Source: Candidatus Sumerlaeota bacterium (GTDB lineage: Bacteria; Sumerlaeota; Sumerlaeia; SLMS01). From it: a stretch of DNA of 39,890 bases. The translations under genes were made by a program, and so were the position numbers. Below the pieces are notes generated by a model that worked only from the letters and a program-made list of their open reading frames with translations, searched no databases and had not been told where the DNA came from. Positions 1 to 32,449 of the stretch are shown in pieces (the stretch's first letter is position 1; every line of letters starts with the position of its first letter). The stretch spans positions 1 through 39,890 of the forward strand of contig JADZDZ010000073.1 in assembly GCA_020850785.1 (NCBI GenBank). The letters are read 5' to 3'.

Positions 1-2153
1 AAGGTGTCCGACCGGGCGCGATCGTAGCGGTCGTAGGCCTCCTTGAAGCGCTTCACAATTTCATCGTCCTTCAGTTCATCGTTAAGCACAAGGTCCTTGT
101 AGCGGTTGTCGCGCACGTTCAGGCTGAAGAGCTGCAGGTAGTCATACCAGCGCTGACGTTCCGCGAGCAGGCGTTCAAGGTCGCCCCGGATGCCCGTGGG
201 GAACGGGCCCGTCGGCTGTTGGTTGAAGGCTTCCAGAAGGTTCTTCTTCTTCTCCTCGCGAAGCTGCGCGATTTCTGTCGCGGCCATCTTCGATAACCCG
301 AAGCGGGGATCGCCCTCTGCGGACAAGATGCCTTCCAGCTTCTGGATCACCTGATCGTAGAACTTGATCTTGTTTTGGTCGGGGTTGGCCTTAAAGTCCG
401 CCAGCAGACCAAGGTATTCGTTGTACAGCGTTGAAACCTTGTCCAGCGTGGTCAGTCGGCGATTCACGTCGTCGCGGCCCGTATAATCCACCGCGACCGC
501 GTTGCGCAACTTGCGAACCTCCTCGATGCTCTGGCCGTCGAAATCGTAATAGGCCTTCAGCAACTGCGCGTGCGCGCGGGCCGATTCCACCTTCGCCATG
601 TACTTGGCGATGTCGTTCTTCAACTGCTCGTCATTGGCGGTCTTCGCATTCATGCGATCAATGACAGCAGTCAGATCATCCGCCGTCTGCACGTAGGTGG
701 TGTTCATGTCCTTCATCGCGGCGTTGTAGGCATTGAGCAGCTCCTGCTTCGCCTTGATGCGATTTTCCGCCGCAGGAAGGATCGTGGAGGCGTTTTCAAA
801 CGCATCCTCCGAGGCCTTCTCGCTGGTCTGCTTCAGGATGGCGATCTTGCGAAGCGCCTCATCCCAGTTCTCCGCCGCTTCCGCGCGTTCGTAGTCGTTC
901 TTCGCGGCGGAAACAGCCTCGCGGAAACGACGTTGCACGTCGCGTTGCACGTCCGTGGCGCGATTGCCGATCTGCGACGTGTTGAAATCGAGGGTCTTCG
1001 CTGCGATATACGCACCAATGTAGTCACGCGCGTCGAGGCGCTCCTTCGTGGCGCGCAGCTTCTGCAGGTCTTCCTGCAACGCGCGAATTTCGCCCGCCTG
1101 GCCTTCTGGCGGATTCTTCGACAGGCGAATCAAGACATCATTTGCATCCTCGTAACGACGCTGCGTGACGAAATCGAGCGCCATCGCGGTGTCCACACCG
1201 GCTCCTGCCTTGCTGCCCGATCCGGAAGAACCGCCGGTCGTTGAGGCACCGCCGGTGTTGCTGGCTGTGCCCATCGCCTTCGGCCCGATGTAGCCCATCT
1301 TGTATGCGAAATAGCCGCCCACGCCCACCACCACCAGCACCAGCATGATGATGACGAAGCGCGCCGCCGTGGCCGCGCCCGATTCCTTCGCGTTGGAAAT
1401 ATCAGGCCAATCAACGAAGTGGAACGTGAAGCTGGAATCGCCAATATCGATCTGATCGCCGTCCTTGATGAATGCCTTGCCGATGCGGCGGCCATTCAAC
1501 TGGGTGCCGGAATCCTGCGACATGTTCTTAAGTTGGATCTTCTGGCCCTTCAGGAAGCGGATTTCCGCATGGACGGGTGAGGCGGTGCTGTCGATCACCC
1601 GGATGTCCACCTCGCCTGCGTCGGTTCCAATCAGGACCGCATCCTTCTCGATGCCAAACTTCACGGCATTCGTCACGGAACGCAGCTCCAGATACGCGTA
1701 GGCGCGCTTGTTGGATCGCATCTCCTGCACCCCGCCACCGCCGCCCGCGAATCCTGCGGCTGCGGGACGGGGTTCGGACTTCTGGCTTGCTTCCTTGAAC
1801 ATCGCCGCGATGTCGGGATTGTTCAGGTCCACCGCGAGGGTTTCGTTGCCAGACTGCGCCGCCTTCTTCACGTGGAACTTCACCGCCACATAGCCAAAGT
1901 GAAGCGTCGTGCCATCCTTCAGTTGAACCGGCTTGTTCGGCTCGATCGGCTTCTCATTCACGAAGGTTTTGTTCTTCGCGCCCAAGTCCTCCACGTACCA
2001 ATCGTCGCCCTCGCGCTTCAGCGTCGCGTGGTTGCGCGAAATGCTTTGGTCATCAATCTGGATGTCGTTTTCAGGAACACGGCCAACGGAGTTCGTGTCC
2101 TTCGTCAGTTCAAATCGTTTGCCGCTGGCCAGCAATATGTAGGCGTCGCTCAT
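1..2153 (-). CDS. Tandem-FHA single-pass membrane protein with a long helical extracytoplasmic region (partial; 3' end runs off the window)
   Basis: Absent from the ORF track because it has no stop codon inside the window. My own minus-strand translation starts at ATG 2153 (GAAGGAAG 4 nt upstream, 12 nt after the stop of the preceding gene) and stays open for 717 codons to position 1. It reads MSDAYILLASGKRFELTKDTNSVGRVPENDIQIDDQSISRNHATLKREGDDWYVEDLGAKNKTFVNEKPI (FHA signature GR..SxxH..N). A second FHA-like module follows: AVLIGTDAGEVDIRVIDSTASPVHAEIRF..SGTQLNGRRI. Next is a hydrophobic helix, FVIIMLVLVVVGVGGYFAY (nt ~1299..1364), and then >400 aa of helical, Lys/Glu/Ala-rich sequence. Confidence 0.8.
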   Translation of the reverse strand, partial: MSDAYILLASGKRFELTKDTNSVGRVPENDIQIDDQSISRNHATLKREGDDWYVEDLGAKNKTFVNEKPIEPNKPVQLKDGTTLHFGYVAVKFHVKKAAQSGNETLAVDLNNPDIAAMFKEASQKSEPRPAAAGFAGGGGGVQEMRSNKRAYAYLELRSVTNAVKFGIEKDAVLIGTDAGEVDIRVIDSTASPVHAEIRFLKGQKIQLKNMSQDSGTQLNGRRIGKAFIKDGDQIDIGDSSFTFHFVDWPDISNAKESGAATAARFVIIMLVLVVVGVGGYFAYKMGYIGPKAMGTASNTGGASTTGGSSGSGSKAGAGVDTAMALDFVTQRRYEDANDVLIRLSKNPPEGQAGEIRALQEDLQKLRATKERLDARDYIGAYIAAKTLDFNTSQIGNRATDVQRDVQRRFREAVSAAKNDYERAEAAENWDEALRKIAILKQTSEKASEDAFENASTILPAAENRIKAKQELLNAYNAAMKDMNTTYVQTADDLTAVIDRMNAKTANDEQLKNDIAKYMAKVESARAHAQLLKAYYDFDGQSIEEVRKLRNAVAVDYTGRDDVNRRLTTLDKVSTLYNEYLGLLADFKANPDQNKIKFYDQVIQKLEGILSAEGDPRFGLSKMAATEIAQLREEKKKNLLEAFNQQPTGPFPTGIRGDLERLLAERQRWYDYLQLFSLNVRDNRYKDLVLNDELKDDEIVKRFKEAYDRYDRARSDT

Positions 2154-2165
2154 GAATCTTCCTTC

Positions 2166-3896
2166 TCAGCGGTCGCTGATGATGTTTTTGGCGGTCTGCT
2201 CTCGTACAAGGTGGCTGTAGACGAACCACTCATCGAGGAACACGAATTCCTCCGGTTCCATTCCAAGAGTGGCAAATTGGTAAAGCTCGTCGTTCTTCTT
2301 CTGGGCGCCCTTCCAGTCGCGGTTGTCGCGCAGGCGTTCAATTTCCTTCCAGCTCTGCATGAAGAAGCCCGACTCGCTCTGGCAGTAGTCGTAGATTTTT
2401 TCCGCCTTGGAGAAAATGCGCAGGTAATCGTCATCAAATGCCCACTTGTCCGCGACCTGCAGCAGGCAGAGTGCGCGATGGTAGCGATTGAAGGCGCGGA
2501 AGAAGTTCCACTTATCCTTGTAGTAGTCCAACTCCGCCATCTTGTACGTCATCAGGTCCGGAATCAGTTTGTCCGCTTCCTTCTCCAGATCCAACGCATT
2601 TGCAATCAATGCCTCGTTGTCTTCCTTGCGCTTGGGCGGTGCCATGTTCTGCTTTTCCACCAGCATGCGAATGGCCTCATCTACGCGATCCGCCTGGAAC
2701 GCGTAGTCGCGCGCCGTGAAGATCGCGAGCGATTCCCCCTTCTTCTCCTGCCGCATCATGTAGTGCATGTATGGCTGGTCGCCGATGTTCATGGTGAAGT
2801 CGGCCCATTGCTGGTTGTTGTCGAACTTGGTCCACTTTGCGCGGTCAACCAGCGCGCCGAGCATCTTGGAGATGCGCGGCTTCGAGGCGAAACGCATGTC
2901 CGGCGATTTCAGGTCAAGGCTGACGACCTGAATCGGCGCGGAGGTGGGAAGACTGTCCCAGACTTCGATATAGAAATCGAAGTGGATTGGCGCTTTTTCC
3001 CCCAGCTTGGCGTCATAGCCCGCGCTCTTGCCAATCAGGCCGGGAGGGGTTTCGTTATACAATTGATCGTTGTCGTAGGAAACCCAGCTGACGTAGTAGT
3101 TGCCGAGCACCAAGGGCTGCTCTCCCTTGATGAGACGTCCGTTGCCAAGACGTGGGTTGTAGTTCGACCAGTTGCGGTTGCGGTAAACCAGATTTGAGAA
3201 GGGGTCCGGTGGCAGCACACTCGCTGTTGCAAGCTCGCTGCGGTCCTGATAACCGCCCTTCTTCGCGCCGGGGCGCACGGCGGACTGGAAGCTGTAGAAA
3301 TAAGGACGTGGTGCGGGGGCATCCTTGTCCTTCGGAATGTAGTTGTTCGTCGGCCTGTCGGAAAAATCGCCGGGAACGGGGAGGTTCACCTGCGGCAGGC
3401 CGCGAAAGCCAAGTGTCTTGATGCCGCGCAGCGTGTTGATCACCACCGGCGTCTGCTGCTTCTGCTTTTCCTTTTGGTAGTTCACGCCGTAGTAGACGAA
3501 AATCAGGAGGAGGACGAGGCTTGACGCCACGAGGAGCAGCGCGCCCTTGCGGCGTCCCGTGCGGACGGACTGCTGCATGTCCAGCGGCGCGGAGGCGTTG
3601 CGAATGGTGACCTCTATCGTGGTGTCGCCAATGCCAATGCGATCGCCCTGGGAAAGCAGCGCCTTCGTCACCGAATTGCCGTTGTGCTGCACCTTGTTGA
3701 TGCTGCCGAGGTCCACCACCTGCGCGGTTTCGTTACCAATTTCCAACCGTGCGTGTTTGTTGGAGACGGTGGGATCGTTCAGGCGGATGTGGCATTCCTG
3801 ATCGCGACCAATGATCGTGGTCGCGCCCGAGACCCGGAAGATGCGGCCCTTGTCCGGGCCGCCGATCACTTCAAGTTCAAGTTGTATGTCTGGCAT
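2166..3896 (-). CDS. FHA-domain single-pass membrane protein with a ~430-aa extracytoplasmic domain of unknown family
   Basis: 576-aa ORF. The N-terminus IIGRDQECHIRLNDPTVSNKHARLE..DLGSINKVQHNGNSV carries the FHA signature (GR, SxxH, N). One hydrophobic helix, GALLLVASSLVLLLIFVYYGV (aa ~118-138). The ATG lies 21 nt after the tadC stop. I recognise no family in the remainder; the last ~150 aa look like helical repeats. Confidence 0.85.
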   Translation of the reverse strand: MPDIQLELEVIGGPDKGRIFRVSGATTIIGRDQECHIRLNDPTVSNKHARLEIGNETAQVVDLGSINKVQHNGNSVTKALLSQGDRIGIGDTTIEVTIRNASAPLDMQQSVRTGRRKGALLLVASSLVLLLIFVYYGVNYQKEKQKQQTPVVINTLRGIKTLGFRGLPQVNLPVPGDFSDRPTNNYIPKDKDAPAPRPYFYSFQSAVRPGAKKGGYQDRSELATASVLPPDPFSNLVYRNRNWSNYNPRLGNGRLIKGEQPLVLGNYYVSWVSYDNDQLYNETPPGLIGKSAGYDAKLGEKAPIHFDFYIEVWDSLPTSAPIQVVSLDLKSPDMRFASKPRISKMLGALVDRAKWTKFDNNQQWADFTMNIGDQPYMHYMMRQEKKGESLAIFTARDYAFQADRVDEAIRMLVEKQNMAPPKRKEDNEALIANALDLEKEADKLIPDLMTYKMAELDYYKDKWNFFRAFNRYHRALCLLQVADKWAFDDDYLRIFSKAEKIYDYCQSESGFFMQSWKEIERLRDNRDWKGAQKKNDELYQFATLGMEPEEFVFLDEWFVYSHLVREQTAKNIISDR

Positions 3897-3917
3897 GAGA
3901 AGTTTTCGCCGCGCCTG

Positions 3918-4823
3918 TTATTTGACTTTCCGGAATGCCTGAATCATCATGGGGCCGATCAGCACGAGGAAGATCGACGGGAAGATGAACAGGATCATTG
4001 GAATCAGCATCTGGGTTGGCGCTTTGTTGGCTTTTTCCTCCGCCACCTGAATTCGGCGGAAGCGCATGATTTCACCCTGCATGCGCATCACTTTTCCGAG
4101 CGGCGTTCCCAGTTCCTCCTGCTGGATCAGCGCCGTCACGAACGAGCGCATTTCCATCAGGTCCGAGCGGTCCGCCAGTTCGAGAAGGGCCTTCTTGCGC
4201 GAGCGACCGAGTTGGAGCTGCTTGAAGAAGCGCTTCATTTCCTGCTGCAGTGGTCCCTTCGTCATCAACTCGGACGCGCGGTCGATGGCCATGGTGAACT
4301 CCATGCCCGCCTCCACCAGCAGCGTCATCAGGTCGAGGAAATAGGGCATCGCGCAGAAGATCGCCCAGCGGCGCTCATTCGTGATCTGGTTCAGGTAATA
4401 GAATGGCGCGATGAAAAGGACGCCGCCAAGGAACAGGCTGAACAGGACGATGTAGTTGCGATCCACGTTCGGCAGCAGCACCACCAGCGACATGGGCAGC
4501 GCGATGCCGATGATGAACAGAACGATGTGCGACCCCACGTATTCCTTCGGGGTGAACTTGTCATCAAGGCCGGAGCGATTCAGGTTCCGTTCCGCCCACT
4601 TCAGGTAATTTCCCAGGGGAAGTGACTGAACGACGTCCGTCAGTTTCCCCATTTTGCGTGCCAGAGGGAGCATCAGCGCGAACACGCCAACGTAGCCAAG
4701 GTCCGACTGCTGGAACTCCTCGCCGATGTCGCGGAAAAGCCATGCGATGAAGAACGCAAACGCCGCAAAAGCCACGGCGGCAACCGCCGCAAGCATGTTG
4801 GGATTTTGTATGAACTCAGTCAT
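3918..4823 (-). CDS. tadC: Tad pilus inner-membrane platform protein TadC (T2SSF/GspF-type)
   Basis: 301 aa. It has an N-terminal TM segment, a central soluble helical domain (..RSFVTALIQQEELGTPLGKVMRMQGEIMR..) and a C-terminal TM (PTQMLIPMILFIFPSIFLVLIGP), which is the T2SSF layout. It is the second of two such paralogues directly after cpaF. Confidence 0.85.
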   Translation of the reverse strand: MTEFIQNPNMLAAVAAVAFAAFAFFIAWLFRDIGEEFQQSDLGYVGVFALMLPLARKMGKLTDVVQSLPLGNYLKWAERNLNRSGLDDKFTPKEYVGSHIVLFIIGIALPMSLVVLLPNVDRNYIVLFSLFLGGVLFIAPFYYLNQITNERRWAIFCAMPYFLDLMTLLVEAGMEFTMAIDRASELMTKGPLQQEMKRFFKQLQLGRSRKKALLELADRSDLMEMRSFVTALIQQEELGTPLGKVMRMQGEIMRFRRIQVAEEKANKAPTQMLIPMILFIFPSIFLVLIGPMMIQAFRKVK

Positions 4824-4859
4824 GAAAAACCTTTCGCATCACGGCAACGTGTCGGCGCA

Positions 4860-5753
4860 TCACAGCTTGATGTCCACGATCTTGTTGATGACGTAGTAAC
4901 CAATCGCGTCCAGAACGATCACCATCACCAGAATGACGAAGCCCGCCGTCGTCGTGAACAACTGCGCCGGCAGGTTGGGATCGATGAAGAAGAGTATCAG
5001 CATCAACGCGAAGGGGGCGCTTGTCAGAATCAGGGACTGCGTCTTGCCTTCGGCGGTCAGCGTCTCGATGCGGCGCTCAACGCGGAAGCGCTCCTGCACC
5101 ATCAGCACGGTTTTCTCGCAGACCTCGATGATGCCCTCTCCCATGGAGAAGATCGTGTTGATCGAGGCCACGAAGAGGTGAAGGTCCTGCACGGGGATGC
5201 GCTTTGTGAGGTTCTCCAGCGCGCGCTCCAGCGAAAGGCCCAGGGAGACTTCCTGCACCACGAGGCGGAACTCGCCCGCGAGCGGGTCCTGCGACTCGTT
5301 CACCATCAACTTGATCGCGTCGATGAAGGACAGGTTTGCCTTCACGGAGTTTGAAAGAATCTGGAGCCCGTCGATCATCTGCAGCCGGAACTTGTAGATG
5401 CGGCTGGCGTATGCGCGCTTGATGATGATGTCGGGGATGAAAAAGCAGGGCACGGAGAGAAAGATGATCGGAATGAACTGCGCCTGCATGTTCGGGAGGC
5501 CGATGCCCACGAGGAAACCGACTGCGGCGCCGAAGCCCATGCACGCCAGCTTCAGCGTCATGATGAAGGTGGCCGGCATGTAGATGAACATTTCGCCGAG
5601 GGTCGCCTCGCTGGCGCCCGCGAAGCGCTTTGAATAGGCCTCGCTGCCCGCCGCCATTGCGGAGGTGAGCGTGAAGCCGCAAAGCCCCACGCTAAGCGAC
5701 GCCATGATCAGATACGTCACAAGCCATGCATTGGTGGTTGGCAATTGCATCAT
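4860..5753 (-). CDS. tadB: Tad pilus inner-membrane platform protein TadB (T2SSF/GspF-type)
   Basis: 297 aa with the same T2SSF architecture: N-terminal TMs, a soluble domain (..LERALENLTKRIP..SMGEGIIEVCEKT..) and C-terminal TMs. It starts 6 nt after the cpaF stop. Confidence 0.85.
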   Translation of the reverse strand: MMQLPTTNAWLVTYLIMASLSVGLCGFTLTSAMAAGSEAYSKRFAGASEATLGEMFIYMPATFIMTLKLACMGFGAAVGFLVGIGLPNMQAQFIPIIFLSVPCFFIPDIIIKRAYASRIYKFRLQMIDGLQILSNSVKANLSFIDAIKLMVNESQDPLAGEFRLVVQEVSLGLSLERALENLTKRIPVQDLHLFVASINTIFSMGEGIIEVCEKTVLMVQERFRVERRIETLTAEGKTQSLILTSAPFALMLILFFIDPNLPAQLFTTTAGFVILVMVIVLDAIGYYVINKIVDIKL

Positions 5754-5758
5754 GATGG

Positions 5759-7831
5759 TCAGGTTCCCGCGTCCGTGGACGGCTGGAAGATTTCGAACGG
5801 CACTTCGCCGCCGCGTTCCTTGTGGATGCGCAGGAAATTGGGAATCGTGCCCACGGGGATGAAGTCACCCTTCATTCCGCCCTTTGCATCCAGCGTGTAT
5901 TCGAACTTGTAGATCGACTGCGTAACGTACTCGTTTCCGTCGAGGCCGAGCACTTCGACGATCTCCCCAATGCGGCGGCGCCCGTCGGGGAAACGCTCCA
6001 CGAACACAACAAGGTTCACCGCGCGCGCGATCTGTTCGCGAATTGCCAGCAGCGGCAGGTCAAGCCCCGCCATGAGGCACATCGTTTCAAGGCGCGTCAG
6101 CATGTCTCTGGCGCTGTTTGCGTGGCCTGTGGAGAGCGAGCCGTCGTGGCCCGTGTTCATGGCCTGAAGCATGTCGATCGCTTCGCCGGAGCGGATTTCG
6201 CCGACCACGATGCGGTCGGGGCGCATGCGCAGTGCGTTCTTCACAAGGTCGCGAATCGTCACAGAGGTCGCGCCTTCGGTGTTCGACGGCCTTGTTTCCA
6301 GCGAGATCACGTGCTGCTGCTGGAGTTGAAGTTCCGCAGAGTCCTCGATGGTCAGGATGCGTTCGTCGTCGGGAATGTAGGAGGAAATCACATTCAACAG
6401 CGTCGTCTTGCCGGAAGCCGTGCCGCCGGAGATGAAGATGTTCTGGCGCATTTTGACGGCAAGTTCCAAAAATTTTGCCATGCCGGGGCTGAACGAACCC
6501 TTGGACATCAGGTCCTTCGGTGTCAGCGGCTTTGCGGGAAACTTGCGGATCGTCAGCACGGGGCCAACCAGCGACACCGGCGGGATAATGGCATTCACGC
6601 GGGAGCCATCGGCGAGGCGCGCGTCCACCATCGGGCGTGCCTGATTGATGGGGCGTCCCAGCGGCGCCACGATGCGGTTGATGATCGTCAGCAGGCGTTC
6701 TTCGTCGATGAACTGCTTGTCTGTGCGGACGGTCTTGCCGCGCCGTGCGACGAAAATCTTCGACGGACCATTGACCATGATTTCCTCAATCTCATGATCT
6801 TCGAGGAAATCCTGAATGGGACCAAGGCCCAACGCCTCGTCCAGCACGTCCTTCAGAAGTTGCTTCGGCGACACATCGTGCTGAAGCGACCCGCTCTTCT
6901 GCAGGTCGTAAATAATCTGGTTCGTGATCGTGCGGGCGCGGTTCCACAATTCATCGTCAGCCATCTTGTCCGCGCTGACGGTCTTCAGGCGGATCTTCTC
7001 CACCAACTGCTCGTGGATCGCGGCGCGAAGCTTCGTGTAGGAATCCGAAGCCTCCATCCGCTTCTTTTTTCCGCTAACGAAGGGATTCTTGGCGCCCTGC
7101 ACGGCGCCCGCCTGAAGGGTCGCGCGGTTCAGTTCGACGGTCTTGCCGCTTTCCCCCTCCTGCCGGGGCTCACGCGGGGGGCGCGAAACTGTCGACGGCC
7201 CTCCACCGGAACCGGGAGGACGCGGCACCGCGCCTTTCTGCTGCTTCATGGATTCAAGTTGTTCGGGTGAATATTGCACCGTGGCATTGTCCGGCACTGT
7301 TGGCGCGCCGGGGCCTCCGCGCTGCCGCATCGCCTCAAGCTGTTCTGGTGAGTATTGAACCGTCGCATTGGAGGGCACCGGGTCGCCGGCACCCGCTGCG
7401 CCCGCGTTCTGCATGCGGCGCAAAACTTCCGGGCTGTATTCCATCGTGGCGCCCGCTTCCAGCGGACTTGATCCACCGGGAATTTGCATCGTCGCGCCGC
7501 CCATTGGCAGCCCTTCGTACTCATCGCCCATCGGCGGCGCTTCGTATTCAAGCAGCACATCGCCAATGATGATCTTGTCGCCGTCGGAAAGTTCGCGCGT
7601 GTCGGCCACCTTCTCCGCGTTCACGTAGATGCCGGTTTTGCTGCCCGCATCGCGGATCGAGTAGCCGCCGGGCCTGCGAATCAGGTGGGCATGCTGCTTG
7701 GAAACAGTGCCGCGCGCGATGACCATGTCGCAGTTCTCGTCGCGCCCGATTGTAATGATGTCCGCCGTGCAGTCGAACGAGGCATCGAAGGAGTTGTCGA
7801 AGGATTTTGCTCTTAAAACGGGAAAGGCCAC
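5759..7831 (-). CDS. cpaF: CpaF/TadA-family secretion ATPase fused to an N-terminal FHA domain through a repeat-containing Pro/Gly-rich linker
   Basis: 690 aa. The C-terminal ~400 aa form a T2SSE/VirB11-like ATPase: Walker A GGTASGKTT, Asp box ILTIEDSAEL, Walker B RPDRIVVGEIR, His box GHDGSLSTGHANS. aa 1-97 form the FHA domain (IGRDENCD..SKQHAHL..TGIYVNAEKV). GTG start with AGGA 8 nt upstream. Confidence 0.9.
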   Translation of the reverse strand: MAFPVLRAKSFDNSFDASFDCTADIITIGRDENCDMVIARGTVSKQHAHLIRRPGGYSIRDAGSKTGIYVNAEKVADTRELSDGDKIIIGDVLLEYEAPPMGDEYEGLPMGGATMQIPGGSSPLEAGATMEYSPEVLRRMQNAGAAGAGDPVPSNATVQYSPEQLEAMRQRGGPGAPTVPDNATVQYSPEQLESMKQQKGAVPRPPGSGGGPSTVSRPPREPRQEGESGKTVELNRATLQAGAVQGAKNPFVSGKKKRMEASDSYTKLRAAIHEQLVEKIRLKTVSADKMADDELWNRARTITNQIIYDLQKSGSLQHDVSPKQLLKDVLDEALGLGPIQDFLEDHEIEEIMVNGPSKIFVARRGKTVRTDKQFIDEERLLTIINRIVAPLGRPINQARPMVDARLADGSRVNAIIPPVSLVGPVLTIRKFPAKPLTPKDLMSKGSFSPGMAKFLELAVKMRQNIFISGGTASGKTTLLNVISSYIPDDERILTIEDSAELQLQQQHVISLETRPSNTEGATSVTIRDLVKNALRMRPDRIVVGEIRSGEAIDMLQAMNTGHDGSLSTGHANSARDMLTRLETMCLMAGLDLPLLAIREQIARAVNLVVFVERFPDGRRRIGEIVEVLGLDGNEYVTQSIYKFEYTLDAKGGMKGDFIPVGTIPNFLRIHKERGGEVPFEIFQPSTDAGT
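7244..7498 (-). repeat. In-frame tandem repeats in the cpaF linker (about 27 aa / 81 nt period), each carrying A-T-[MV]-[QE]-[YI]
   Basis: Protein copies are GATMQIPGGSSPLEA, GATMEYSPEVLRRMQ, NATVQYSPEQLEAMRQ and NATVQYSPEQLESMKQ. The two best copies are also visibly similar at nucleotide level (7246..7297 vs 7326..7378). All four Thr use ACG codons, at 7490-92, 7445-47, 7361-63 and 7280-82. Confidence 0.8.
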
Positions 7832-7999
7832 GTCACGATCCTATTCACGCAATTGCGCCGCCTGCTCAATCTGGCGCGAATCCATTCTGTTCAATTCACG
7901 CGGCCTTTTTCAACACTCAATCCGCAACCGGGACCAACCTTTTTTGCCGTCGTCCGCGGCGGCGTGCCGCAAAAAATTCATTCTATCCCAATAGGTGAA

Positions 8000-8030
8000 G
8001 TGGCACGGGCGATTTTGTCACCCGTGCCAC
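8000..8030 (-). other. GC-rich hairpin in the 225-nt cpaC-cpaF gap (possible partial terminator or RNA-stability element)
   Basis: A 10-bp perfect stem, GTGGCACGGG (8000..8009) paired with CCCGTGCCAC (8021..8030), and an 11-nt loop. On the minus strand it lies 27 nt after the cpaC TAA. No immediately adjacent U-tract; a TTTTTT run lies ~25 nt further downstream. Confidence 0.35.
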
Positions 8031-8056
8031 CCCGGTTTCATTCACGACGATGCGCC

Positions 8057-9907
8057 TTACTTGGCGCCCGTTCCGAACTTGTCTTCCGGTGCGGGTGTCA
8101 ACGCCGGCGGAGCAGGAATATCCTTCTCCCAGCCGAGGTAGTAACCCACCGAACCCTTGCGATACTGCGAATCGCGCTCGTAGTACTGGCGTGCGCGGTC
8201 GGCGTTGTCGCTGTGGCGCTTGCGGTTTGCTTCCGTCCAGATGTTCGGCGACGTCGGCGTCACGAAGATGAAGGAACGCACCTGCGTGCCCTGACGTGCC
8301 TGGAACTTGAAGAACAGGTTGATGATCGGAATCTTTCCGAGCAGCGGCATTTCGTTCTTCGTCGTGGAGAACAGGTTCGCGTTGCTGCCGGCGACGATGA
8401 TCGTCTGGCCGTCGCTCACTTCAACCACGCTGGACGTGTTCACATCCTTCAGCGAGAAGATTTCGTCGTCGCTGCTGGTCTGGTTGTTTGTCGTGGCCTT
8501 CGTGGAGGTCGTGATCTGGATGCGAATCTTGCCGTTTTCCAGAATGAACGGCGTCGCGCTGACCTGAACGCCCTGCTCGATGTTCGCCACGGAGGTCGTG
8601 TTTGCGCCCTCAAGGCTCACGAACGTGCTAAGGCCGTCCTTGAAGCTCGCCGTCTCGCCGCTGACCACCGAGAGGTGCGGGGCCTGATAGTGGACGACGT
8701 AGTCCTGCGTCTTGGTTGCTTCAATCTGCGCGAGAACGTTTCCACCCGGATCCCAGGTCACCAGCAATTCATCTTCGCCGTAGCCGGCGTTGTCCGTGCC
8801 GAAGTCAAGGCCCGTGCCTGCACGGCCCCCTGCGGCGCCCGGATAGTTGAACAGGTATTCGCGCGCGGCGTCATCACCGTGGCCGTTAAGGCGCTGCACG
8901 GCCTGCGCCGTGTAGAAGTTGCTGATGATGCCCGTCTGCGGGTCCGCCTGCTCGACTTCGCGGAGCAACTGGAAGTCGATCGAGTTGAGCTGGTTGTAGA
9001 TGTTCGTGCCGCGGCGGTCAGCCTTCGACATGTCAACGGTCACCAACACGACGTCCAGTTCGATGATCGGCTTCTGCAGTTGGATGTGGCTGATCACGTT
9101 CGGGAAATAGAGCTTCGCGATCTGTTCCGCTTCCGACTTCTCGCGGTCCGTTGTCGCGACGCCTGTCAGCCAGGCGCTGATTTCCTTCTCGTTGTTTTCC
9201 TTCAACTCTGCCTTGATCTGGCCGAAGTTGCGGGCATCGAAATCCTGACGCAGTTGCGCCAGCATCTTCTGCTGTTCGCTCTGCGTGATCTGCGATTCCA
9301 CGAGGTCAACCACGTTGAAATTCTTGATGATGGTCTGGTAACGCTGGTAGTCTGCCATCGAGACGATCGTGCCCTGAACGACGAGGAGGTCGCCGACCTG
9401 CGAGGCGCTCACGCCGACCACGTCGCTCAGAAGCTGGCGAAGGGTCTGCAGGTCCTTCGCGACGTCCTGGCTGGAGACGACGAAGCGAATCAGGCGAACC
9501 GAGCCGTCATTGAGCATTGCACGAAGGTCGGAGGTGCCCGCCGCCTTGGAATGCACAAGGATGCCGTTGCCGTCAGGGGACACGGTCGCCGTGATGACGT
9601 TCGTGTTGCTGACAGCGATGCGCCCAACGCCCTGAATGCCCAGATACTCGTCCTGGTCGACTTCCTTGCGCACCACGCGCTCCGGTTCCTGAAGCGTGGT
9701 CTGTGCTGCTGCTGCCGCCGGTGCCGGCGCTGCAGCCGTTGCCGCTGGTGCGGCGGGTGTCGGACGTGGTTCGTTGTCCGTTCTGGTGTTTGTAACGCCC
9801 TGTGCCGCTGGTGTCACTGGGGGGACACTGCCGACTTGGGCCAGCGCCGTGCCCCCGCCAACCATAGCGAGCGAGGCCACAAGTAATGCCTTGTATGCCT
9901 TTTTCAT
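8057..9907 (-). CDS. cpaC: Tad/Flp pilus outer-membrane secretin CpaC/RcpA
   Basis: 616 aa. Signal peptide MKKAYKALLVASLAMVGGGTALA, then an Ala/Pro-rich linker. The C-terminal secretin core is ..GQTIIVAGSNANLFSTTKNEMPLLGKIPIINLFFKFQARQGTQVRSFIFVTPT. Located between cpaB and cpaF. Confidence 0.9.
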   Translation of the reverse strand: MKKAYKALLVASLAMVGGGTALAQVGSVPPVTPAAQGVTNTRTDNEPRPTPAAPAATAAAPAPAAAAAQTTLQEPERVVRKEVDQDEYLGIQGVGRIAVSNTNVITATVSPDGNGILVHSKAAGTSDLRAMLNDGSVRLIRFVVSSQDVAKDLQTLRQLLSDVVGVSASQVGDLLVVQGTIVSMADYQRYQTIIKNFNVVDLVESQITQSEQQKMLAQLRQDFDARNFGQIKAELKENNEKEISAWLTGVATTDREKSEAEQIAKLYFPNVISHIQLQKPIIELDVVLVTVDMSKADRRGTNIYNQLNSIDFQLLREVEQADPQTGIISNFYTAQAVQRLNGHGDDAAREYLFNYPGAAGGRAGTGLDFGTDNAGYGEDELLVTWDPGGNVLAQIEATKTQDYVVHYQAPHLSVVSGETASFKDGLSTFVSLEGANTTSVANIEQGVQVSATPFILENGKIRIQITTSTKATTNNQTSSDDEIFSLKDVNTSSVVEVSDGQTIIVAGSNANLFSTTKNEMPLLGKIPIINLFFKFQARQGTQVRSFIFVTPTSPNIWTEANRKRHSDNADRARQYYERDSQYRKGSVGYYLGWEKDIPAPPALTPAPEDKFGTGAK

Positions 9908-9997
9908 TCGATACCCCTTTCGGTATAGGTTTTACTGCTCCTACTATTTTCCTGCACCGGAAAGCGGGTTCGCATTCCGGGTTTATTCCTTGAACTC

Positions 9998-10864
9998 CTA
10001 CCTCATCCGATCACTGCGCTCAGTCTGCAGACGCGACAACTCTGTCAGATTCAGCACATCCTGATAGGTCACTTCCGTGCGTGGACTGATCGTGCCCGGA
10101 TCGGTCTGCTTGCGAAGCAACAGCGTGAAGACCGCCGTGTCCGTCAGGTTGCCGCCTTCCCTCAGGCCGACGCGCATGGCGAAGGTGAGGATTTGCGCTT
10201 CCCGCGGCGTCACTGCGATGGTGATATTCTGCATTCCGCCGCTGCGGCGCGGGCGCGCCATGTTGATGCCCGGCGTTTCGACGAAGTCCTCGCCGATCGC
10301 CAGCACCTTCACATTTTCGAACATATAGACAGTGGTCGGGCGGTAGGAGAATTCCTCGATCGTCTGCGGCCCCTGATTGGGAACCGTGATCGTGCGCACC
10401 GTCTTGTCCGGAACCTGCAGCGTTGCGATGATGTCCACGCGATCGCCCACGCGCAGGAAGGAGGTCAGCGAGCCGCCCTTTTCGATGTCGATGCTGATGG
10501 CGCGCTCGCCGTCCTGCAGCTTCGTGTCAAAGGTGAATGTCTCCACATTGGAAACATTCTTTTCCACGCTCTGGTCCAGAAGCACGTCGTTGGGCTGCAT
10601 GTCTGCGGCCACGCGGCTTCCGACGTAGAGGCCCTTGTCCTGCGGGCGTGCAAGGCCGCGAATCTTTCCCGCCGTTGCCGCGTCGATGGTCGCTTCACCG
10701 ATGTCCTCAATGCGCAGCGCCTCGCCCTTCTTGCGCTCGGTCTTCAGCACCAGCACGGTCGTCATCTGCGTGCGCTGCTGCTGCGACTTCAAATACTGCT
10801 GAATTCCCAAAAACGCGAAGATACCAAAAACAACCGCGATAATGATCGGCACTTTCGTCTGCAT
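9998..10864 (-). CDS. cpaB: Flp pilus assembly protein CpaB/RcpC (membrane-anchored, SAF-like)
   Basis: 288 aa. N-terminal anchor VPIIIAVVFGIFAFLGI, then ..VLVLKTERKKGEALRIEDI.. (SAF-like) and a beta-rich C-terminal half. It occupies the canonical position between the prepilin peptidase and the secretin. Confidence 0.8.
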   Translation of the reverse strand: MQTKVPIIIAVVFGIFAFLGIQQYLKSQQQRTQMTTVLVLKTERKKGEALRIEDIGEATIDAATAGKIRGLARPQDKGLYVGSRVAADMQPNDVLLDQSVEKNVSNVETFTFDTKLQDGERAISIDIEKGGSLTSFLRVGDRVDIIATLQVPDKTVRTITVPNQGPQTIEEFSYRPTTVYMFENVKVLAIGEDFVETPGINMARPRRSGGMQNITIAVTPREAQILTFAMRVGLREGGNLTDTAVFTLLLRKQTDPGTISPRTEVTYQDVLNLTELSRLQTERSDRMR

Positions 10865-10878
10865 GGTGGTTCCTTAGG

Positions 10879-11388
10879 CTATTTGAATTTCTGGAGAAGA
10901 ACGATCAAAATCCCCAGACACATCGACGTTCCGAAAGGGATGCGCTGGGTCATCAGCCCCAGCACGCCAACCGGCTGCTTTCCAACTTCTGCATCCTGCG
11001 ATTTTCTCAACTGACGATTCCTGTAGCTTTTCCAGACGATGAACCCAAGCCCAATTATGCCTCCGATCATCAGAGCATAATAAAGGATTCGGAACGTATC
11101 TATAGTTCCCACAAGCGCCCCGATGGCCGCCGCCAGCTTCACATCCCCCCCACCCACGGAGGGACGGCCGCGGCTCCAGCCGGTGATCAGGTAGGGGATC
11201 ATGAAGCACCCCCCCGCGATCAGCGCCGCCTTCAGGGCGTCGATGAAATGGGCTTCCAAAAGGGCCAGAAACAACCCCAGCAGGAGCGCCGGGATCGTCA
11301 GCCAGTTGTAGATTTTGCCTTCCTTCAGTTCCGTATAGATGATCACCGGAACCATCAACAGAAGGATGATCGGTTGCAGTGGTGGCAA
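10879..11388 (-). CDS. cpaA: A24-family prepilin peptidase CpaA/TadV
   Basis: 169 aa polytopic membrane protein containing the GGGDVKL motif (second catalytic Asp box of A24 peptidases). Located between flp and cpaB. The start is uncertain: TTG at 11388, with an in-frame ATG 11 codons downstream. Confidence 0.8.
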   Translation of the reverse strand: MPPLQPIILLLMVPVIIYTELKEGKIYNWLTIPALLLGLFLALLEAHFIDALKAALIAGGCFMIPYLITGWSRGRPSVGGGDVKLAAAIGALVGTIDTFRILYYALMIGGIIGLGFIVWKSYRNRQLRKSQDAEVGKQPVGVLGLMTQRIPFGTSMCLGILIVLLQKFK

Positions 11389-11546
11389 CGCAGGCTTTCC
11401 ATGAAGGGGTCACGGCGTGGTGATGCCCTTGTGGAGAGTGGGCGAGCTTCTGCCCTCAGCTAAACAAACGACAGCAGACCGTAATAGGACTGGACGCTTT
11501 CATCCCATCCCCAGCTTTACACAGTCCAGCGAAAAAGTTGTCTTCT

Positions 11547-11584
11547 AAAAAAAGAAAAGGCCGCATCGAGCGATCGATGCGGCC
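11547..11584 (-). terminator. Intrinsic terminator/attenuator after flp
   Basis: An 11-bp stem, GGCCGCATCGA (11559..11569) paired with TCGATGCGGCC (11574..11584), with a 4-nt loop. On the minus strand it is followed by TTTTCTTTTTTT (plus-strand A-run 11547..11558). It sits 17 nt after the flp TAA. Confidence 0.8.
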
Positions 11585-11600
11585 TTTTGGGAGGATAACC

Positions 11601-11876
11601 TTAGTTCAGGTTAACTTCTGTTTCGGCGGCTCCACTCTCGGTCTGGGCCATGTCCGGCTTGTCCGAGGTAAGCTTTCCTGTTTCAGCGATCTTCACCTTC
11701 TCAGTTGTCGTCGTGCTACCGCTGACCTTGTCAACCGACGTCTTGACCTGGCTGCGAAGCTGACCACCGAGGAGCATGAAGGCAAGGATGCCCGCAACGG
11801 CGATGAGCACGAGGATGATGACGTACTCCGTGGAGATGGCGCCCTTGCGGTTGTTGCGTGTGATGAGGTTCTTCAT
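11601..11876 (-). CDS. flp: Flp/Fap-family type IVb pilin
   Basis: MKNLITRNNRKG|AISTEYVIILVLIAVAGILAFMLLGG matches the Flp leader, the G/xxxxEY processing motif and the hydrophobic helix. I prefer ATG 11876 (GGAGAA 4 nt upstream) over the track's start at 11897. Confidence 0.85.
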   Translation of the reverse strand: MKNLITRNNRKGAISTEYVIILVLIAVAGILAFMLLGGQLRSQVKTSVDKVSGSTTTTEKVKIAETGKLTSDKPDMAQTESGAAETEVNLN

Positions 11877-12068
11877 GGTTTTCTCCTGATATTCCAAGTG
11901 GAAGAGTTTGCGAGATCAAAACCGGCGCCCGGCTTGGGTGCGCCGGTCAGCCTCTTGGGGTCCTAACAAGAACTGGATAACACCTAATCTTCGCCCCTCA
12001 AGGGCACCCACTGGGTGCAGTCCTGATTTTGGGGGTGGATTTTTCTGCTTTCCAGTTTCTGAACGTGA

Positions 12069-12097
12069 ATTAATGGGCGGTTTTTCACCAGCGTCAA
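12069..12097 (-). promoter_or_regulatory. Candidate sigma70-type promoter for flp
   Basis: On the minus strand: TTGACG (12097..12092), a 17-nt spacer, then ATTAAT (12074..12069). This would give a ~185-nt leader. Sequence pattern only. Confidence 0.25.
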
Positions 12098-12235
12098 CAC
12101 AAAAGGGTTCGCGTCTCGCATTTTTCCTGATTTAACGGGGCAAATTCCCTCCCCTTGACCCCTGACGCCCTCCCCTTGGACCGTTGGGGATATTGAAGCT
12201 AGTCCACATACCCTCCCCATTTTTGAGGTTTTCCC

Positions 12236-13345
12236 ATGATTATCGGCGTTCCAAAGGAAATTAAGGATCAGGAATACCGCGTTGCCATGACGCCCGCTGG
12301 TGTCAAGGAACTGACGCGCCGCGGCCACCGGGTGATTGTCCAGACCCGCGCCGGCGTTGGCATCGGCGTCGAGGATTCCGCCTTCACCGCCGCCGGGGCG
12401 GAAATCGCCGATACCGCCGAAGAGGTCTTTGAGCGCGCCACCCTGATTGTTAAGGTGAAGGAGCCGATCAAGTCCGAATACAAGCTCATTCGCCCGGATC
12501 ATGTTCTTTTTGAATACTTCCATTTCGCATCGAGCAAGGACCTGACGGATGCGATGATCGCCAGCAAGGCCACGTGCCTGGCGTATGAAACGGTTACCGG
12601 CCCCGGCGGCCATCCGCTGCTGACGCCCATGAGCGAAATTGCCGGACGCCTCTCCGTGCAGCAGGGTGCCAAGTATCTGGAAAAACCCTCCGGCGGTCGT
12701 GGAACCCTTCTTGGCGGCGTGCCCGGCGTGAAGCCGGCCCGCGTGATGGTGCTGGGGGGCGGCGTCGTCGGCACGAACGCGGCGAAGATCGCCGCAGGCA
12801 TGGGCGCGCGCGTGACCATCCTCGACATCAATCTGGAGCGGCTTCGTTATCTGGACGATGTGATGCCGAAGAACATTTCCACCCTCTATTCCAACGAGCA
12901 CAACATCGCCAGCCAGCTTGACCGCGTGGACGTGATCATCGGCGGCATCTACCGCAGCGGCGCGCGCGCATCGCACCTGATTCGGCGCGAGCACCTGAAG
13001 ATGATGCCCAAGGGGGCCGTCGTCGTGGACGTCGCCATCGATCAGGGTGGCTGCTTCGAATCATCGCGCCCAACCACCCACAGCGACCCGATCTACGAAG
13101 AGGACGGCGTCATTCACTACTGCGTCACCAACATGCCCGGCGCCGTGGCCCGCACATCCACTTTTGCACTCACCAATGCGACGCTCCCCTACGTCATCTG
13201 GATAGCGGAGCAGGGATGGCCCGATTGCGTTACGGAAAACGAGCACCTTCGCCACGGCCTCAACATCGCCAAGGGGAAGGTCACCCATCCCGGCGTCGCG
13301 GAAGCGTACGGCCTCCCGCTGGAAGCGGTGGACGCGGTCCTGTAG
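12236..13345 (+). CDS. ald: Alanine dehydrogenase
   Basis: 369 aa. MIIGVPKEIKDQEYRVAMTPAGVKEL.., NAD-binding VLGGGVVGTNAAKIA, ..HYCVTNMPGAV... GAGG 7 nt upstream of the ATG. Confidence 0.92.
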   Translation: MIIGVPKEIKDQEYRVAMTPAGVKELTRRGHRVIVQTRAGVGIGVEDSAFTAAGAEIADTAEEVFERATLIVKVKEPIKSEYKLIRPDHVLFEYFHFASSKDLTDAMIASKATCLAYETVTGPGGHPLLTPMSEIAGRLSVQQGAKYLEKPSGGRGTLLGGVPGVKPARVMVLGGGVVGTNAAKIAAGMGARVTILDINLERLRYLDDVMPKNISTLYSNEHNIASQLDRVDVIIGGIYRSGARASHLIRREHLKMMPKGAVVVDVAIDQGGCFESSRPTTHSDPIYEEDGVIHYCVTNMPGAVARTSTFALTNATLPYVIWIAEQGWPDCVTENEHLRHGLNIAKGKVTHPGVAEAYGLPLEAVDAVL

Positions 13346-13357
13346 GAAATGAAGAAT

Positions 13358-13389
13358 GCGGCGCGGGCGCATACAAACGCCCGCGCTGC
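13358..13389. terminator. GC-rich hairpin between convergent ald and rsmB (possible bidirectional terminator)
   Basis: A 9-bp core stem, GCGCGGGCG (13361..13369) paired with CGCCCGCGC (13378..13386), extendable by 3 bp including one G-U pair. The loop is 8 nt. No clear U-tract on either side. Confidence 0.35.
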
Positions 13390-13406
13390 GGAATGTTCCG
13401 AGTGCG

Positions 13407-14819
13407 TTATTTTTCCTTCCGTCGCATTCGGGCGATGAAGAATCCGTCCGTGTTGTGTGTGGAAGGAAGCATTGTCAGTGATGACCTGTCCGCGCTTTGC
13501 GAAGCGCGGATTTTTTCATTCTGGAAGGGAAGCCAGTCCGGCGCAAAATCGGGAAAGCTGCGCTGCAATTCCGCCATCATCCCCGTCGTCTCCTCCGGCT
13601 CGAAGCTGCACGTTGCATAGACGAGAATCCCACCCGGCTTCACCAGCGGTGCGTACAGCGCAAGGCACTCGCGTTGTTGCGCCGTGGTCTCCGCGATGCG
13701 CGCATCCATCGGCCCGCGCCATTGAAGCGTTGGCTCCCGCCGCAATCGACCGAGCCCCAGGCAGGGCGCGTCGATCAACACCGCATCGTAGGGCGCAAAC
13801 ATCGCCGCCGTTCCGGGCCACGCAATGCGTACGTTTGTGAGTTGGTTTCTGGGGATGCGCTGTTCCAGCGGCTTTAGTCGTGCGGGATCGGTGTCATGCG
13901 CGTACACGACCCCCTTGCCTCCCATCAGCGAAGCCAAATGGATCGTCTTCCCGCCGGCGCCCGCGCATGCATCCAAAATTTTCCATCCCGGCTCCGGTGC
14001 CACGGCAAGGCTCACCAACTGGCTGGCCTGCTCGTGAATTTCGCACCAGCCTTCCTTCATCGCCGGCAGGTCCTTCAGCGACGCCTTCTTGACGAAGCGA
14101 ATGCAGTCGTCGGAGTACGCGCCGGGAGACACCTCCAGCCGATGCTCACGCATGTGCTGCAAGACATCCTCGCGCGATTTGCGGTGACGGTTCACGCGCA
14201 CATCCAACGGCGCCGGTTGGTGGAACGCCTTCGCCAGTGCCACCGCTGCGGCCTCGCCCCGCTCTGCGGTCCATCGTTGCAGCAATTCCGGCGCGATGGA
14301 AAACTCCGCCGCCAATTGGATCGCTCGCGGCGCGTGGGATAGCGCGGGGTCCTTGGCCACGCGTCGCGCGAAATCGCCAACCGTCGCGGAGAGGGCGTCC
14401 AGTTCCTCCTTCGTGGCAACGCCCTGTTCAGCGGCATGGTCCATTGCGGTCAAGGTGAGGGCCTCCGCCTTCCGCGACTCGGCGCCCAAGTCCTTCACCA
14501 GCCACAAATAGGTCGCCAGCGCCGCTTCCTCCAGCGGAGGCGTTCCTGCGATCGCCTCCATCAGGGACGGCGCACCCGATTGGCGCTCCGCCCATTCCCG
14601 CAGCATCAGCAGTTGCGGGCGCCGCCGCAGAAGCGAATAGAGCGCCGCAGCGAGGAACATCCTCCCCTTCATGGCGATTTGCGGGCGTGTGCGAAAAAAG
14701 CCCTCCACAAACTGATCGGTCGGCGTCGTTGTGCGAATCACCGCGTAATAGAGTTCCGCCAGCCGCCCGCGGAGGCGGTCGTGCTGTTCAGATTCGGGAA
14801 TGGATTTCTCAGGTGCCAC
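13407..14819 (-). CDS. rsmB: 16S rRNA (cytosine-C5)-methyltransferase, RsmB/Sun (NOL1/NOP2/Sun) family
   Basis: 470 aa. SAM motif DACAGAGGKT, motif IV DAPCLGLG, motif VI YATCSFEPEE, and an N-terminal NusB-like helical region. GTG start. Confidence 0.85.
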   Translation of the reverse strand: MAPEKSIPESEQHDRLRGRLAELYYAVIRTTTPTDQFVEGFFRTRPQIAMKGRMFLAAALYSLLRRRPQLLMLREWAERQSGAPSLMEAIAGTPPLEEAALATYLWLVKDLGAESRKAEALTLTAMDHAAEQGVATKEELDALSATVGDFARRVAKDPALSHAPRAIQLAAEFSIAPELLQRWTAERGEAAAVALAKAFHQPAPLDVRVNRHRKSREDVLQHMREHRLEVSPGAYSDDCIRFVKKASLKDLPAMKEGWCEIHEQASQLVSLAVAPEPGWKILDACAGAGGKTIHLASLMGGKGVVYAHDTDPARLKPLEQRIPRNQLTNVRIAWPGTAAMFAPYDAVLIDAPCLGLGRLRREPTLQWRGPMDARIAETTAQQRECLALYAPLVKPGGILVYATCSFEPEETTGMMAELQRSFPDFAPDWLPFQNEKIRASQSADRSSLTMLPSTHNTDGFFIARMRRKEK

Positions 14820-32395: not shown

Positions 32396-32449
32396 TGGGG
32401 AAATTTCGCGGTTTCGATGGACTTGACGCCCCGCCGGGGTGACACGGAA

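Follow-up and report, generated by a model that had tools for sequence, protein, structure and literature searches.

A Kil-like Tad pilus operon in Sumerlaeota lacks TadZ and may recruit its motor through a kinase-driven phosphothreonine–FHA network

On the minus strand of positions 1-11897, a 39,890-nt stretch of DNA from a Candidatus Sumerlaeota bacterium (contig JADZDZ010000073.1 of assembly GCA_020850785.1, positions 1 to 39,890; hereafter the 39.9-kb window) encodes a Tad pilus whose motor ATPase carries an FHA domain and whose platform genes are followed by two FHA-domain membrane proteins. In canonical Tad systems the motor is positioned by TadZ, a ParA/MinD-type ATPase. We read the locus as a Kil-like, FHA-type Tad machine in which the motor would be recruited or activated by a kinase-driven phosphothreonine–FHA network in place of TadZ, and we put the probability of this reading at roughly 60%.

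Each of the nine collinear genes in this part of the window is supported by Pfam, in agreement with an earlier note, drawn from the sequence alone, that had listed flp, an A24 peptidase, cpaB, a secretin, cpaF, tadB, tadC and two FHA genes. The span given there for the locus, 1-11897, also holds, apart from the start of flp, which lies at 11876 and not at 11897. By sequence homology, the core machine (Flp, prepilin peptidase, CpaB, secretin, TadB/TadC and CpaF) is a Tad-type (type IVc) pilus. In the order of transcription, the features are:

11601..11876, minus strand: flp-type major pilin (91 aa); weak Pfam Flp_Fap match, E 0.008
11555..11588, minus strand: terminator-like hairpin, with a 15-bp GC-rich stem and a T-run, 13 nt past the flp stop codon
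10879..11388, minus strand: TadV/CpaA-type prepilin peptidase, A24 domain only; Pfam Peptidase_A24 E 2.3e-12
9998..10864, minus strand: CpaB/RcpC; Pfam RcpC E 7.6e-15
8057..9907, minus strand: CpaC/RcpA secretin (616 aa); Pfam Secretin E 2.7e-23
7832..8056, no strand: non-coding gap of 225 nt without an open reading frame (ORF), in the slot of TadZ/CpaE in canonical loci
5759..7831, minus strand: FHA-CpaF motor ATPase (690 aa); Pfam FHA E 2e-16, T2SSE E 7e-60
4860..5753, minus strand: TadB-type platform protein; Pfam T2SSF E 1.7e-10
3918..4823, minus strand: TadC-type platform protein; Pfam T2SSF E 7.6e-19
2166..3896, minus strand: protein A (576 aa); Pfam FHA E 1.5e-14, transmembrane segment at aa 120-138
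1..2153, minus strand: protein B, truncated at the window edge (full length 767 aa); Pfam FHA E 1.7e-35 over two stretches

The gap between the secretin and motor genes is retained at about 210-260 nt in all Sumerlaeota loci. A TadZ hidden Markov model (HMM), built from ORFs with Pfam-supported receiver and ParA/AAA_31 domains, found no TadZ-like ParA/MinD gene in the window or in the extended Sumerlaeota loci, and its sole matches in L030 (handles of this form denote individual loci or contigs of the comparison) fell on a gene downstream of the operon that bears Pfam Response_reg. Neither the window nor L029 yielded a TadD, an RcpB or a pseudopilin of the TadE/F/G type. The absences described in the earlier note, of TadZ/CpaE between secretin and ATPase and of TadD/RcpB and TadE/F/G from the window, thus stand.

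The motor encoded next to this gap consists of an FHA domain (about aa 20-97, or aa 26-90 on narrower limits), a disordered linker (IDR), a three-helix bundle (3HB), an N-terminal domain (NTD) and the ATPase domain (CAD). Its best match in the PDB is Caulobacter CpaF (E 1e-101), with the match beginning at aa 205-282. FHA-CpaF belongs to an already published class, the "class III" CpaF (PMC12019362), with which it shares an identical domain order, FHA-IDR-3HB-NTD-CAD. The paper that defined the class describes it mostly from betaproteobacteria and does not discuss neighbouring genes (Nat Commun 2025, PMC12019362), whereas in our sample FHA membrane proteins, kinases and a second ATPase accompany it in the loci of Sumerlaeota, Lentisphaerota, Myxococcota and Riflebacteria.

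The linker of the Sumerlaeota motor is about 160 aa long and of low complexity, and its residues 110-195 (about 7250-7500 of the window, minus strand) hold three to four G-A-T-x-x-Y/I repeats (T113, T129, T157 and T184), in fuller form G-A-T-[M/V]-[Q/E]-[Y/I]-SPE..L..M. FHA domains bind pT-x-x-Y/I-shaped sites, the shape of these repeats, which are candidate phospho-acceptor and FHA-ligand sites. The threonine repeats are kept in four orthologues, down to 71% identity, and are absent from more distant FHA-CpaFs.

Protein A is predicted to comprise a cytoplasmic FHA domain, a single transmembrane segment and a 436-aa extracytoplasmic domain, and protein B two FHA domains, FHA1 and FHA2, separated by a linker, then a transmembrane segment (aa 260-278) and a further domain, about 480 aa long and entirely helical. 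Pfam places one FHA domain in CpaF, one in A and two in B, which matches the earlier count of four domains in three genes. The GR..SxxH..N signature that had been ascribed to all four is present in three of them (CpaF, A and FHA1 of B), where the Arg/Ser/His/Asn phosphothreonine-binding residues are kept, and is broken in FHA2 of B by the missing Arg. The extracytoplasmic domain of A defines a narrow family, with 12 clusters at 50% identity among 1.84 billion representative proteins; nine of the ten clusters tested have an FHA-type N-terminal match, seven to the FHA model and two to the Yop-YscD_cpl model only. The exact sequence of A was not on record in an exact-sequence look-up, and the 99%-identical P0001 was used instead. 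Both FHA membrane proteins adjoin FHA-CpaF in every Sumerlaeota lineage found, so the association that the earlier note had wanted checked across genomes is conserved at least that far.

Past position 1 the locus can be followed on three contigs that are colinear with the window at 98% nucleotide identity (L116, L117 and L001); L116 and L001 continue into kinase genes, and L001 reaches a second, short cpaF, which we call cpaF2. The operon has 14 genes in all, of which the window covers the first nine; the other five are:

downstream of B: K1, Hanks-type Ser/Thr kinase of 760 aa, predicted to cross the membrane three times and ending in a helical domain
after K1: K2, Hanks-type Ser/Thr kinase of 760 aa with a single membrane crossing and an extramembrane domain of about 410 aa
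after K2: lipoprotein of 275 aa, coiled-coil
L001 14891-16339: K3, kinase-like protein of 482 aa with a C-terminal membrane anchor, directly upstream of cpaF2
after K3: CpaF2, CpaF-family ATPase of 386 aa

All intergenic gaps from FHA-cpaF to cpaF2 are of at most 36 nt, on one strand. In K1 and K2 the Gly-loop, the VALK lysine, HRD, DF[G/S] and the PE of the APE motif are all intact, and both kinases are apparently catalytically active. K3 reads as a conserved pseudokinase because the Gly-loop, the ATP-anchoring VAIK Lys and the HRD Asp (HGR/HGL instead) are missing in four lineages (L001, L003, L004 and L030). CpaF2 is 45% identical to residues 336-682 of FHA-CpaF, has intact Walker A, Walker B, catalytic Glu and His box, and has neither an FHA domain nor the linker nor a three-helix bundle. 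The genes downstream of cpaF2 are unrelated, with no TadZ, PP2C or pseudopilin among them. Of what the earlier note had proposed to look for beyond the window edge, Ser/Thr kinases are thus present, two intact and one a pseudokinase, together with the second CpaF, and PP2C and TadE/F/G genes are not; nor does a normal set of TadZ and pseudopilins follow in the 98%-identical contigs. The lipoprotein is as good a candidate for the role of TadD as the FHA membrane proteins are. A metagenome scan with the partial second ATPase missed the Sumerlaeota contig; it brought up nothing but generic Tad loci with TadZ, about 50% identical, and these were used as controls.

The closest named homologues come from Candidatus Sumerlaeota. 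The same gene order is common to Sumerlaeota lineages whose FHA-CpaFs are 91%, 78-80%, about 59-69% and 53% identical to that of the window, with K2 missing from the more distant lineages L030 and L032. To place the locus more widely, GTDB species genomes were scanned with an FHA-CpaF alignment, giving at least 80 loci that were annotated with HMMs built in this analysis; the Fisher tests that follow treat these loci as independent of kinship. Among the matches listed, TadZ lies adjacent to the motor gene in 0/20 FHA-CpaF loci and 46/49 plain-CpaF loci (p 1.5e-14), and FHA-CpaF and adjacent TadZ are mutually exclusive in the sampled loci. A Hanks kinase gene within 10 kb accompanies FHA-CpaF in 6/24 and plain CpaF in 0/56 of the listed matches (p 4.5e-4), extra FHA proteins do so in 8/24 and 2/56 (p 7e-4), and a second T2SSE ATPase was found in none of the 56 plain-CpaF loci listed.

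Loci with FHA-CpaF fall into two sub-types. In sub-type 1, found in beta- and gamma-proteobacteria, FHA-CpaF directly follows the secretin, there are no extra FHA proteins and nothing else is unusual. Sub-type 2, to which the window belongs, has FHA-CpaF, TadB and TadC followed by FHA accessory proteins; in several loci these are a single-FHA and a two-FHA membrane protein, often joined by a kinase and a second short CpaF. Outside Sumerlaeota, sub-type 2 comprises:

L065, unclassified metagenome-assembled genome (MAG): FHA transmembrane protein, two-FHA transmembrane protein, PP2C, kinase-like gene and short CpaF
L075, Myxococcota MAG: sub-type 2
L085 and L088, Lentisphaerota (L085 a Lentisphaeraceae MAG): sub-type 2
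L112, Sandaracinus amylolyticus, cultured, complete genome (Myxococcota; CP011125.1, about 10.162-10.183 Mb): sub-type 2
L113, Riflebacteria MAG: sub-type 2
L114: sub-type 2

A short CpaF stands beside FHA-CpaF in Sumerlaeota and in five of these loci (L065, L075, L112, L113 and L114), and the short CpaFs form a clade of their own in 163 of 200 neighbour-joining (NJ) bootstraps.

Among the nearest described systems is the prey-killing, Tad-like Kil apparatus of Myxococcus xanthus, which has an FHA-fused ATPase, KilF, and the FHA proteins MXAN_3104, KilD, MXAN_4648 and MXAN_4649, the last two beside the platform genes, and which lacks a second ATPase, TadG, RcpB and TadD (Seef et al. 2021, PMC8460266; Nat Commun 2025, PMC12075869). 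Kil assembles on prey contact via an unknown upstream signal, KilD reaches the contact site before the pilus polymerises, a phospho-cascade like that of the type VI secretion system (T6SS) has been suggested, and Kil-like systems have been said to be restricted to predatory 'delta-proteobacteria' (PMC8460266; PMC12075869). With an FHA-ATPase, FHA accessories and a proposed phospho-cascade already in the Kil paper, the association of FHA domains with a Tad machine is not new, a caution that the earlier note had itself raised. The Sumerlaeota locus resembles Kil in its Tad-derived core, in the N-terminal FHA domain of its ATPase, in having several FHA proteins near the ATPase and platform genes, and in lacking TadZ, TadD and RcpB. 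Protein B, at 767 aa, has the architecture of KilD (740-751 aa in its orthologues), in which two FHA domains are followed by a membrane-spanning segment and a helical C-terminal region, and we therefore regard the locus as a Kil-like FHA-type Tad system and not as a new kind of machine.

The two systems differ in several respects. The Sumerlaeota genes form one operon, whereas those of Kil lie in two clusters; the Sumerlaeota operon includes two active-type Hanks kinases and a pseudokinase, whereas the Kil table has no gene with a protein-kinase domain; Sumerlaeota have the second short CpaF, whereas Kil is described with a single ATPase; FHA2 of B lacks an Arg that KilD has; A and the C-terminus of B share no detectable sequence with Kil proteins, BLAST and hhalign giving no similarity outside the FHA domains; and the Sumerlaeota host stands outside the predatory 'delta-proteobacteria'. 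The KilD orthologues themselves (L051 11715-13934 and L045 2088-4367) are 740-751 aa long and carry two FHA domains, one strongly hydrophobic segment (about aa 291-315) and a C-terminal part of helical/TPR type; L045 and L051 also encode KilF orthologues. Within them the segment after FHA2 comprises 19 residues with a Kyte-Doolittle mean of about 2.5, and the literature calls KilD cytoplasmic; because so strongly hydrophobic a segment follows the second FHA domain, the sequence suggests that KilD crosses the membrane once and has its C-terminal TPR region on the non-cytoplasmic side.

Set against the canonical tad locus of Aggregatibacter and cpa locus of Caulobacter, the window shares a Flp pilin with a G/xxxxEY site, an A24-only peptidase, and CpaB, secretin, CpaF and TadB/TadC in the usual order; it departs from them in having no TadZ between secretin and ATPase and no TadD, RcpB or TadE/F/G, and its operon encodes two CpaF-type ATPases where they have one bifunctional motor. 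In the T6SS of Pseudomonas aeruginosa, activation of the kinase PpkA, acting with PppA and Fha1, leads through phosphothreonine to FHA docking and then to assembly or firing. The Sumerlaeota operon may be likened to this, as a functional analogy only, in encoding a membrane Hanks kinase and an FHA scaffold together with an envelope-spanning machine; the machine is another one, there is no PP2C in the operon, and FHA domains are here fused to the motor and to membrane proteins. Rv1747 of Mycobacterium tuberculosis is an ABC transporter with two FHA domains and a disordered Thr linker, whose phosphorylation by Hanks kinases drives multivalent clustering. B and the CpaF linker repeats might plausibly work in a similar way, though the cargo is different and no homology is claimed beyond the FHA domains.

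On our reading, the receptor kinases would use their extracytoplasmic domains to sense a cue from the envelope or from contact, and would phosphorylate threonines, for which the CpaF linker repeats, the juxtamembrane regions of the kinases and the FHA1-FHA2 linker of B are candidates. The FHA domains of CpaF and A and FHA1 of B would bind the phosphothreonine sites, and the resulting multivalent network would recruit, cluster and/or activate the motor at the TadB/C platform, so that FHA–phosphothreonine docking would substitute for TadZ. CpaF2 might be a further motor, one that drives retraction for instance, or might regulate FHA-CpaF. Tad pili are thought to rely on one bifunctional ATPase. 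In a bolder form of the proposal, which we offer tentatively and would not expect to hold in full, the machine would be a two-motor Tad system under a phospho-switch, in which kinases tuned by the pseudokinase, by phosphorylating the linker threonines of FHA-CpaF and sites on the FHA scaffolds, decide whether FHA-CpaF or CpaF2 engages TadB/C, extension and retraction being divided between them as between PilB and PilT, with FHA docking as the evolutionary replacement of TadZ.

Several points weigh against phosphothreonine docking of the motor. The kinases lie outside the window and are assigned to its lineage from the 98%-identical contigs, and gating by phosphorylation, although well motivated, is something we infer from motifs and gene order. 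No phosphatase gene was found in the Sumerlaeota operon, PP2C being seen only in L065. The machine as encoded in the window lineage is incomplete in cis, because pseudopilins are absent from its locus. The exclusivity of TadZ and FHA-CpaF carries the assumption, noted above, that loci are independent of kinship; a single origin of FHA-CpaF, hinted at by a first NJ tree of ATPase domains, found no support in 200 bootstraps and was dropped, and bootstrapped NJ of the same domains did not resolve where the Sumerlaeota motor stands relative to KilF. When the domains of A and B beyond the transmembrane segment were compared with their counterparts in L065, L075, L085, L088 and the KilD orthologues by BLAST and hhalign, nothing significant emerged, A against L088 (probability 69%, E 4e-5) being a marginal exception. 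AlphaFold2 models were unusable both for the extracytoplasmic domain of A (pLDDT 38, from a 5-sequence alignment) and for the corresponding domain of B (pLDDT 50, single sequence, all-helical). Finally, the FHA domains bear two possible marks of a different function. All four also match Pfam Yop-YscD_cpl (E 1e-11 to 5e-25), the model of the non-phospho-binding YscD of type III secretion systems, and the phosphate-binding Arg of FHA2 of B, kept in KilD, is lost in Sumerlaeota, L075, L065 and L085.

Because of these two marks, a purely structural role of the FHA domains is possible: they would be phospho-independent scaffolds, A and B forming an SctD-like cytoplasmic and inner-membrane ring or cage round TadB/C that docks the FHA-CpaF hexamer by ordinary contacts between proteins, while the kinases regulate expression or another target. 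The sequence of FHA domain, transmembrane segment and large extracytoplasmic domain does mirror SctD (YscD/PrgH), and the Kil supplementary table flags MXAN_4649 as PrgH-like (PMC8460266; PMC12075869). The match of A to the NCBIfam SctD model TIGR02500 (E 2.7e-5), however, scores 23 bits, far under the 86-bit cut-off, and no ring-building fold has come to light in the extracytoplasmic domains, for which a PDB sequence search gave nothing at E up to 1 for A or B and the AlphaFold2 models were of no help. Also against a scaffold of this kind, the complete Arg/Ser/His/Asn set survives in all FHA domains but FHA2 of B, and motif-intact Hanks kinases lie within the operon across Sumerlaeota and recur in other phyla, once with PP2C; we think this explanation unlikely on balance, if serious.

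Two further accounts seem to us weaker still. If the locus were a Kil-like device for contact-dependent killing or secretion, its kinases would sense prey contact and its Sumerlaeota host would be a predator. The parallels with Kil in the FHA-ATPase, the KilD-like protein and the missing TadZ, the prey-contact assembly of Kil with its unknown upstream signal, and the receptor-type kinases with extracytoplasmic domains all fit this. Sumerlaeota genomes are, however, read as those of chitin-degrading organotrophs, the Sumerlaeota genome paper makes no mention of predation, the architecture also occurs in Sandaracinus, Lentisphaeraceae and Riflebacteria, no phylogenetic link of the motor to KilF was resolved, and no effector genes are evident in the window; we consider a killing function doubtful. 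Alternatively, a minimal Tad pilus, from flp to tadC with one or two FHA proteins, might simply neighbour an unrelated Ser/Thr-kinase cluster whose short CpaF serves another type IV filament system. Such a division would suit L115, where a CpaF2-type ATPase occurs with TadE-like and A24 genes and with no FHA-CpaF within 10 kb, as well as the variable number of kinases (K2 being absent from L030 and L032) and the missing pseudopilins of the window lineage. Yet the genes from FHA-cpaF through cpaF2 are tightly packed on a single strand, their order persists down to 53% FHA-CpaF identity, the short CpaF adjoins FHA-CpaF in Sumerlaeota and the five loci named above, and the 56 plain-CpaF loci among the matches listed all lack both a kinase gene within 10 kb and a further T2SSE ATPase, which makes two independent modules very unlikely.

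The flp product has a clear class-III signal motif, with predicted cleavage at RKG/AISTEY followed by a hydrophobic helix; its identity to the corresponding 91-aa genes is 97% in L003 and 81% in L004. The hairpin 3' of flp is likely an attenuator between the pilin and assembly genes that would raise pilin expression over that of the assembly genes. The A24 peptidase, which lacks a methyltransferase domain, as in the TadV/CpaA type, starts at 11388 (TTG) or at 11355 (as called in L116) and is accordingly 158-169 aa long; the overlapping ORF 10874-11413, tried as the peptidase, proved spurious, being not hydrophobic and without a Pfam match, and the frame at 10879-11388 is the real gene. At about residue 20 this peptidase has Glu in place of the first catalytic Asp (YTELKEGKIYN), as it does in all four Sumerlaeota lineages, whereas an alignment with about 40 members shows Asp, in the usual motif TDLRxRRIPN, in nearly all the other Tad peptidases, roughly 35 in number; the second catalytic Asp (GGGDVKL) is retained. 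CpaB/RcpC exceeds the cut-off of the NCBIfam CpaB equivalog TIGR03177 (96 bits against 71), and the T2SS-T3SS_pil_N score of the secretin, 22.9 bits, is slightly below the 23-bit cut-off.

In the more distant Sumerlaeota lineage L004, two pseudopilin-like genes of 322 aa and 119 aa, with the motifs G/AVMVEF and G/VMMTEY, lie upstream of flp (234-1558). The window lineage has an alanine dehydrogenase gene on the opposite strand at that position (369 aa, 12236-13345, plus strand), so its minor pilins must be elsewhere or missing; the ORF beside flp at 11984-12994 (minus strand, 336 aa) is a spurious antisense reading of that gene, of a kind common in GC-rich DNA. The remainder of the window is given over to housekeeping and sugar metabolism. 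Its only kinase-like gene, of the Kdo/WaaP lipopolysaccharide-kinase family (31577-32914, minus strand), lies beside glycosyltransferase and nucleotidyl-transferase genes and is unrelated to the Tad locus. An Rfam scan of 1-13500 gave sub-threshold chance matches only.

Papers on Kil and on class III CpaF have already described the enrichment in FHA domains and the fusion of FHA to the ATPase. In the searchable literature we found no description of kinases and a pseudokinase inside such an operon, of a conserved second short CpaF lineage, or of a general exclusivity between TadZ and FHA-CpaF. The Sumerlaeota locus extends the Kil-like architecture beyond the predatory 'delta-proteobacteria', and it bears on a question that the Kil papers and a 2025 review leave open, namely the role of FHA domains and the upstream trigger of assembly in Kil/Tad-like machines. 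Candidate kinases share an operon with an FHA-tagged motor and FHA scaffolds, in one locus along with a phosphatase, and this provides concrete kinase-substrate pairs, including some in the cultured Sandaracinus amylolyticus. The conserved short CpaF paralogue calls into question the view that a single bifunctional ATPase serves all Tad pili. Since the exclusivity of TadZ and FHA-CpaF is strict in our sample, it suggests a general rule, by which Tad motors would be positioned either by a ParA-like ATPase or by phosphothreonine docking.

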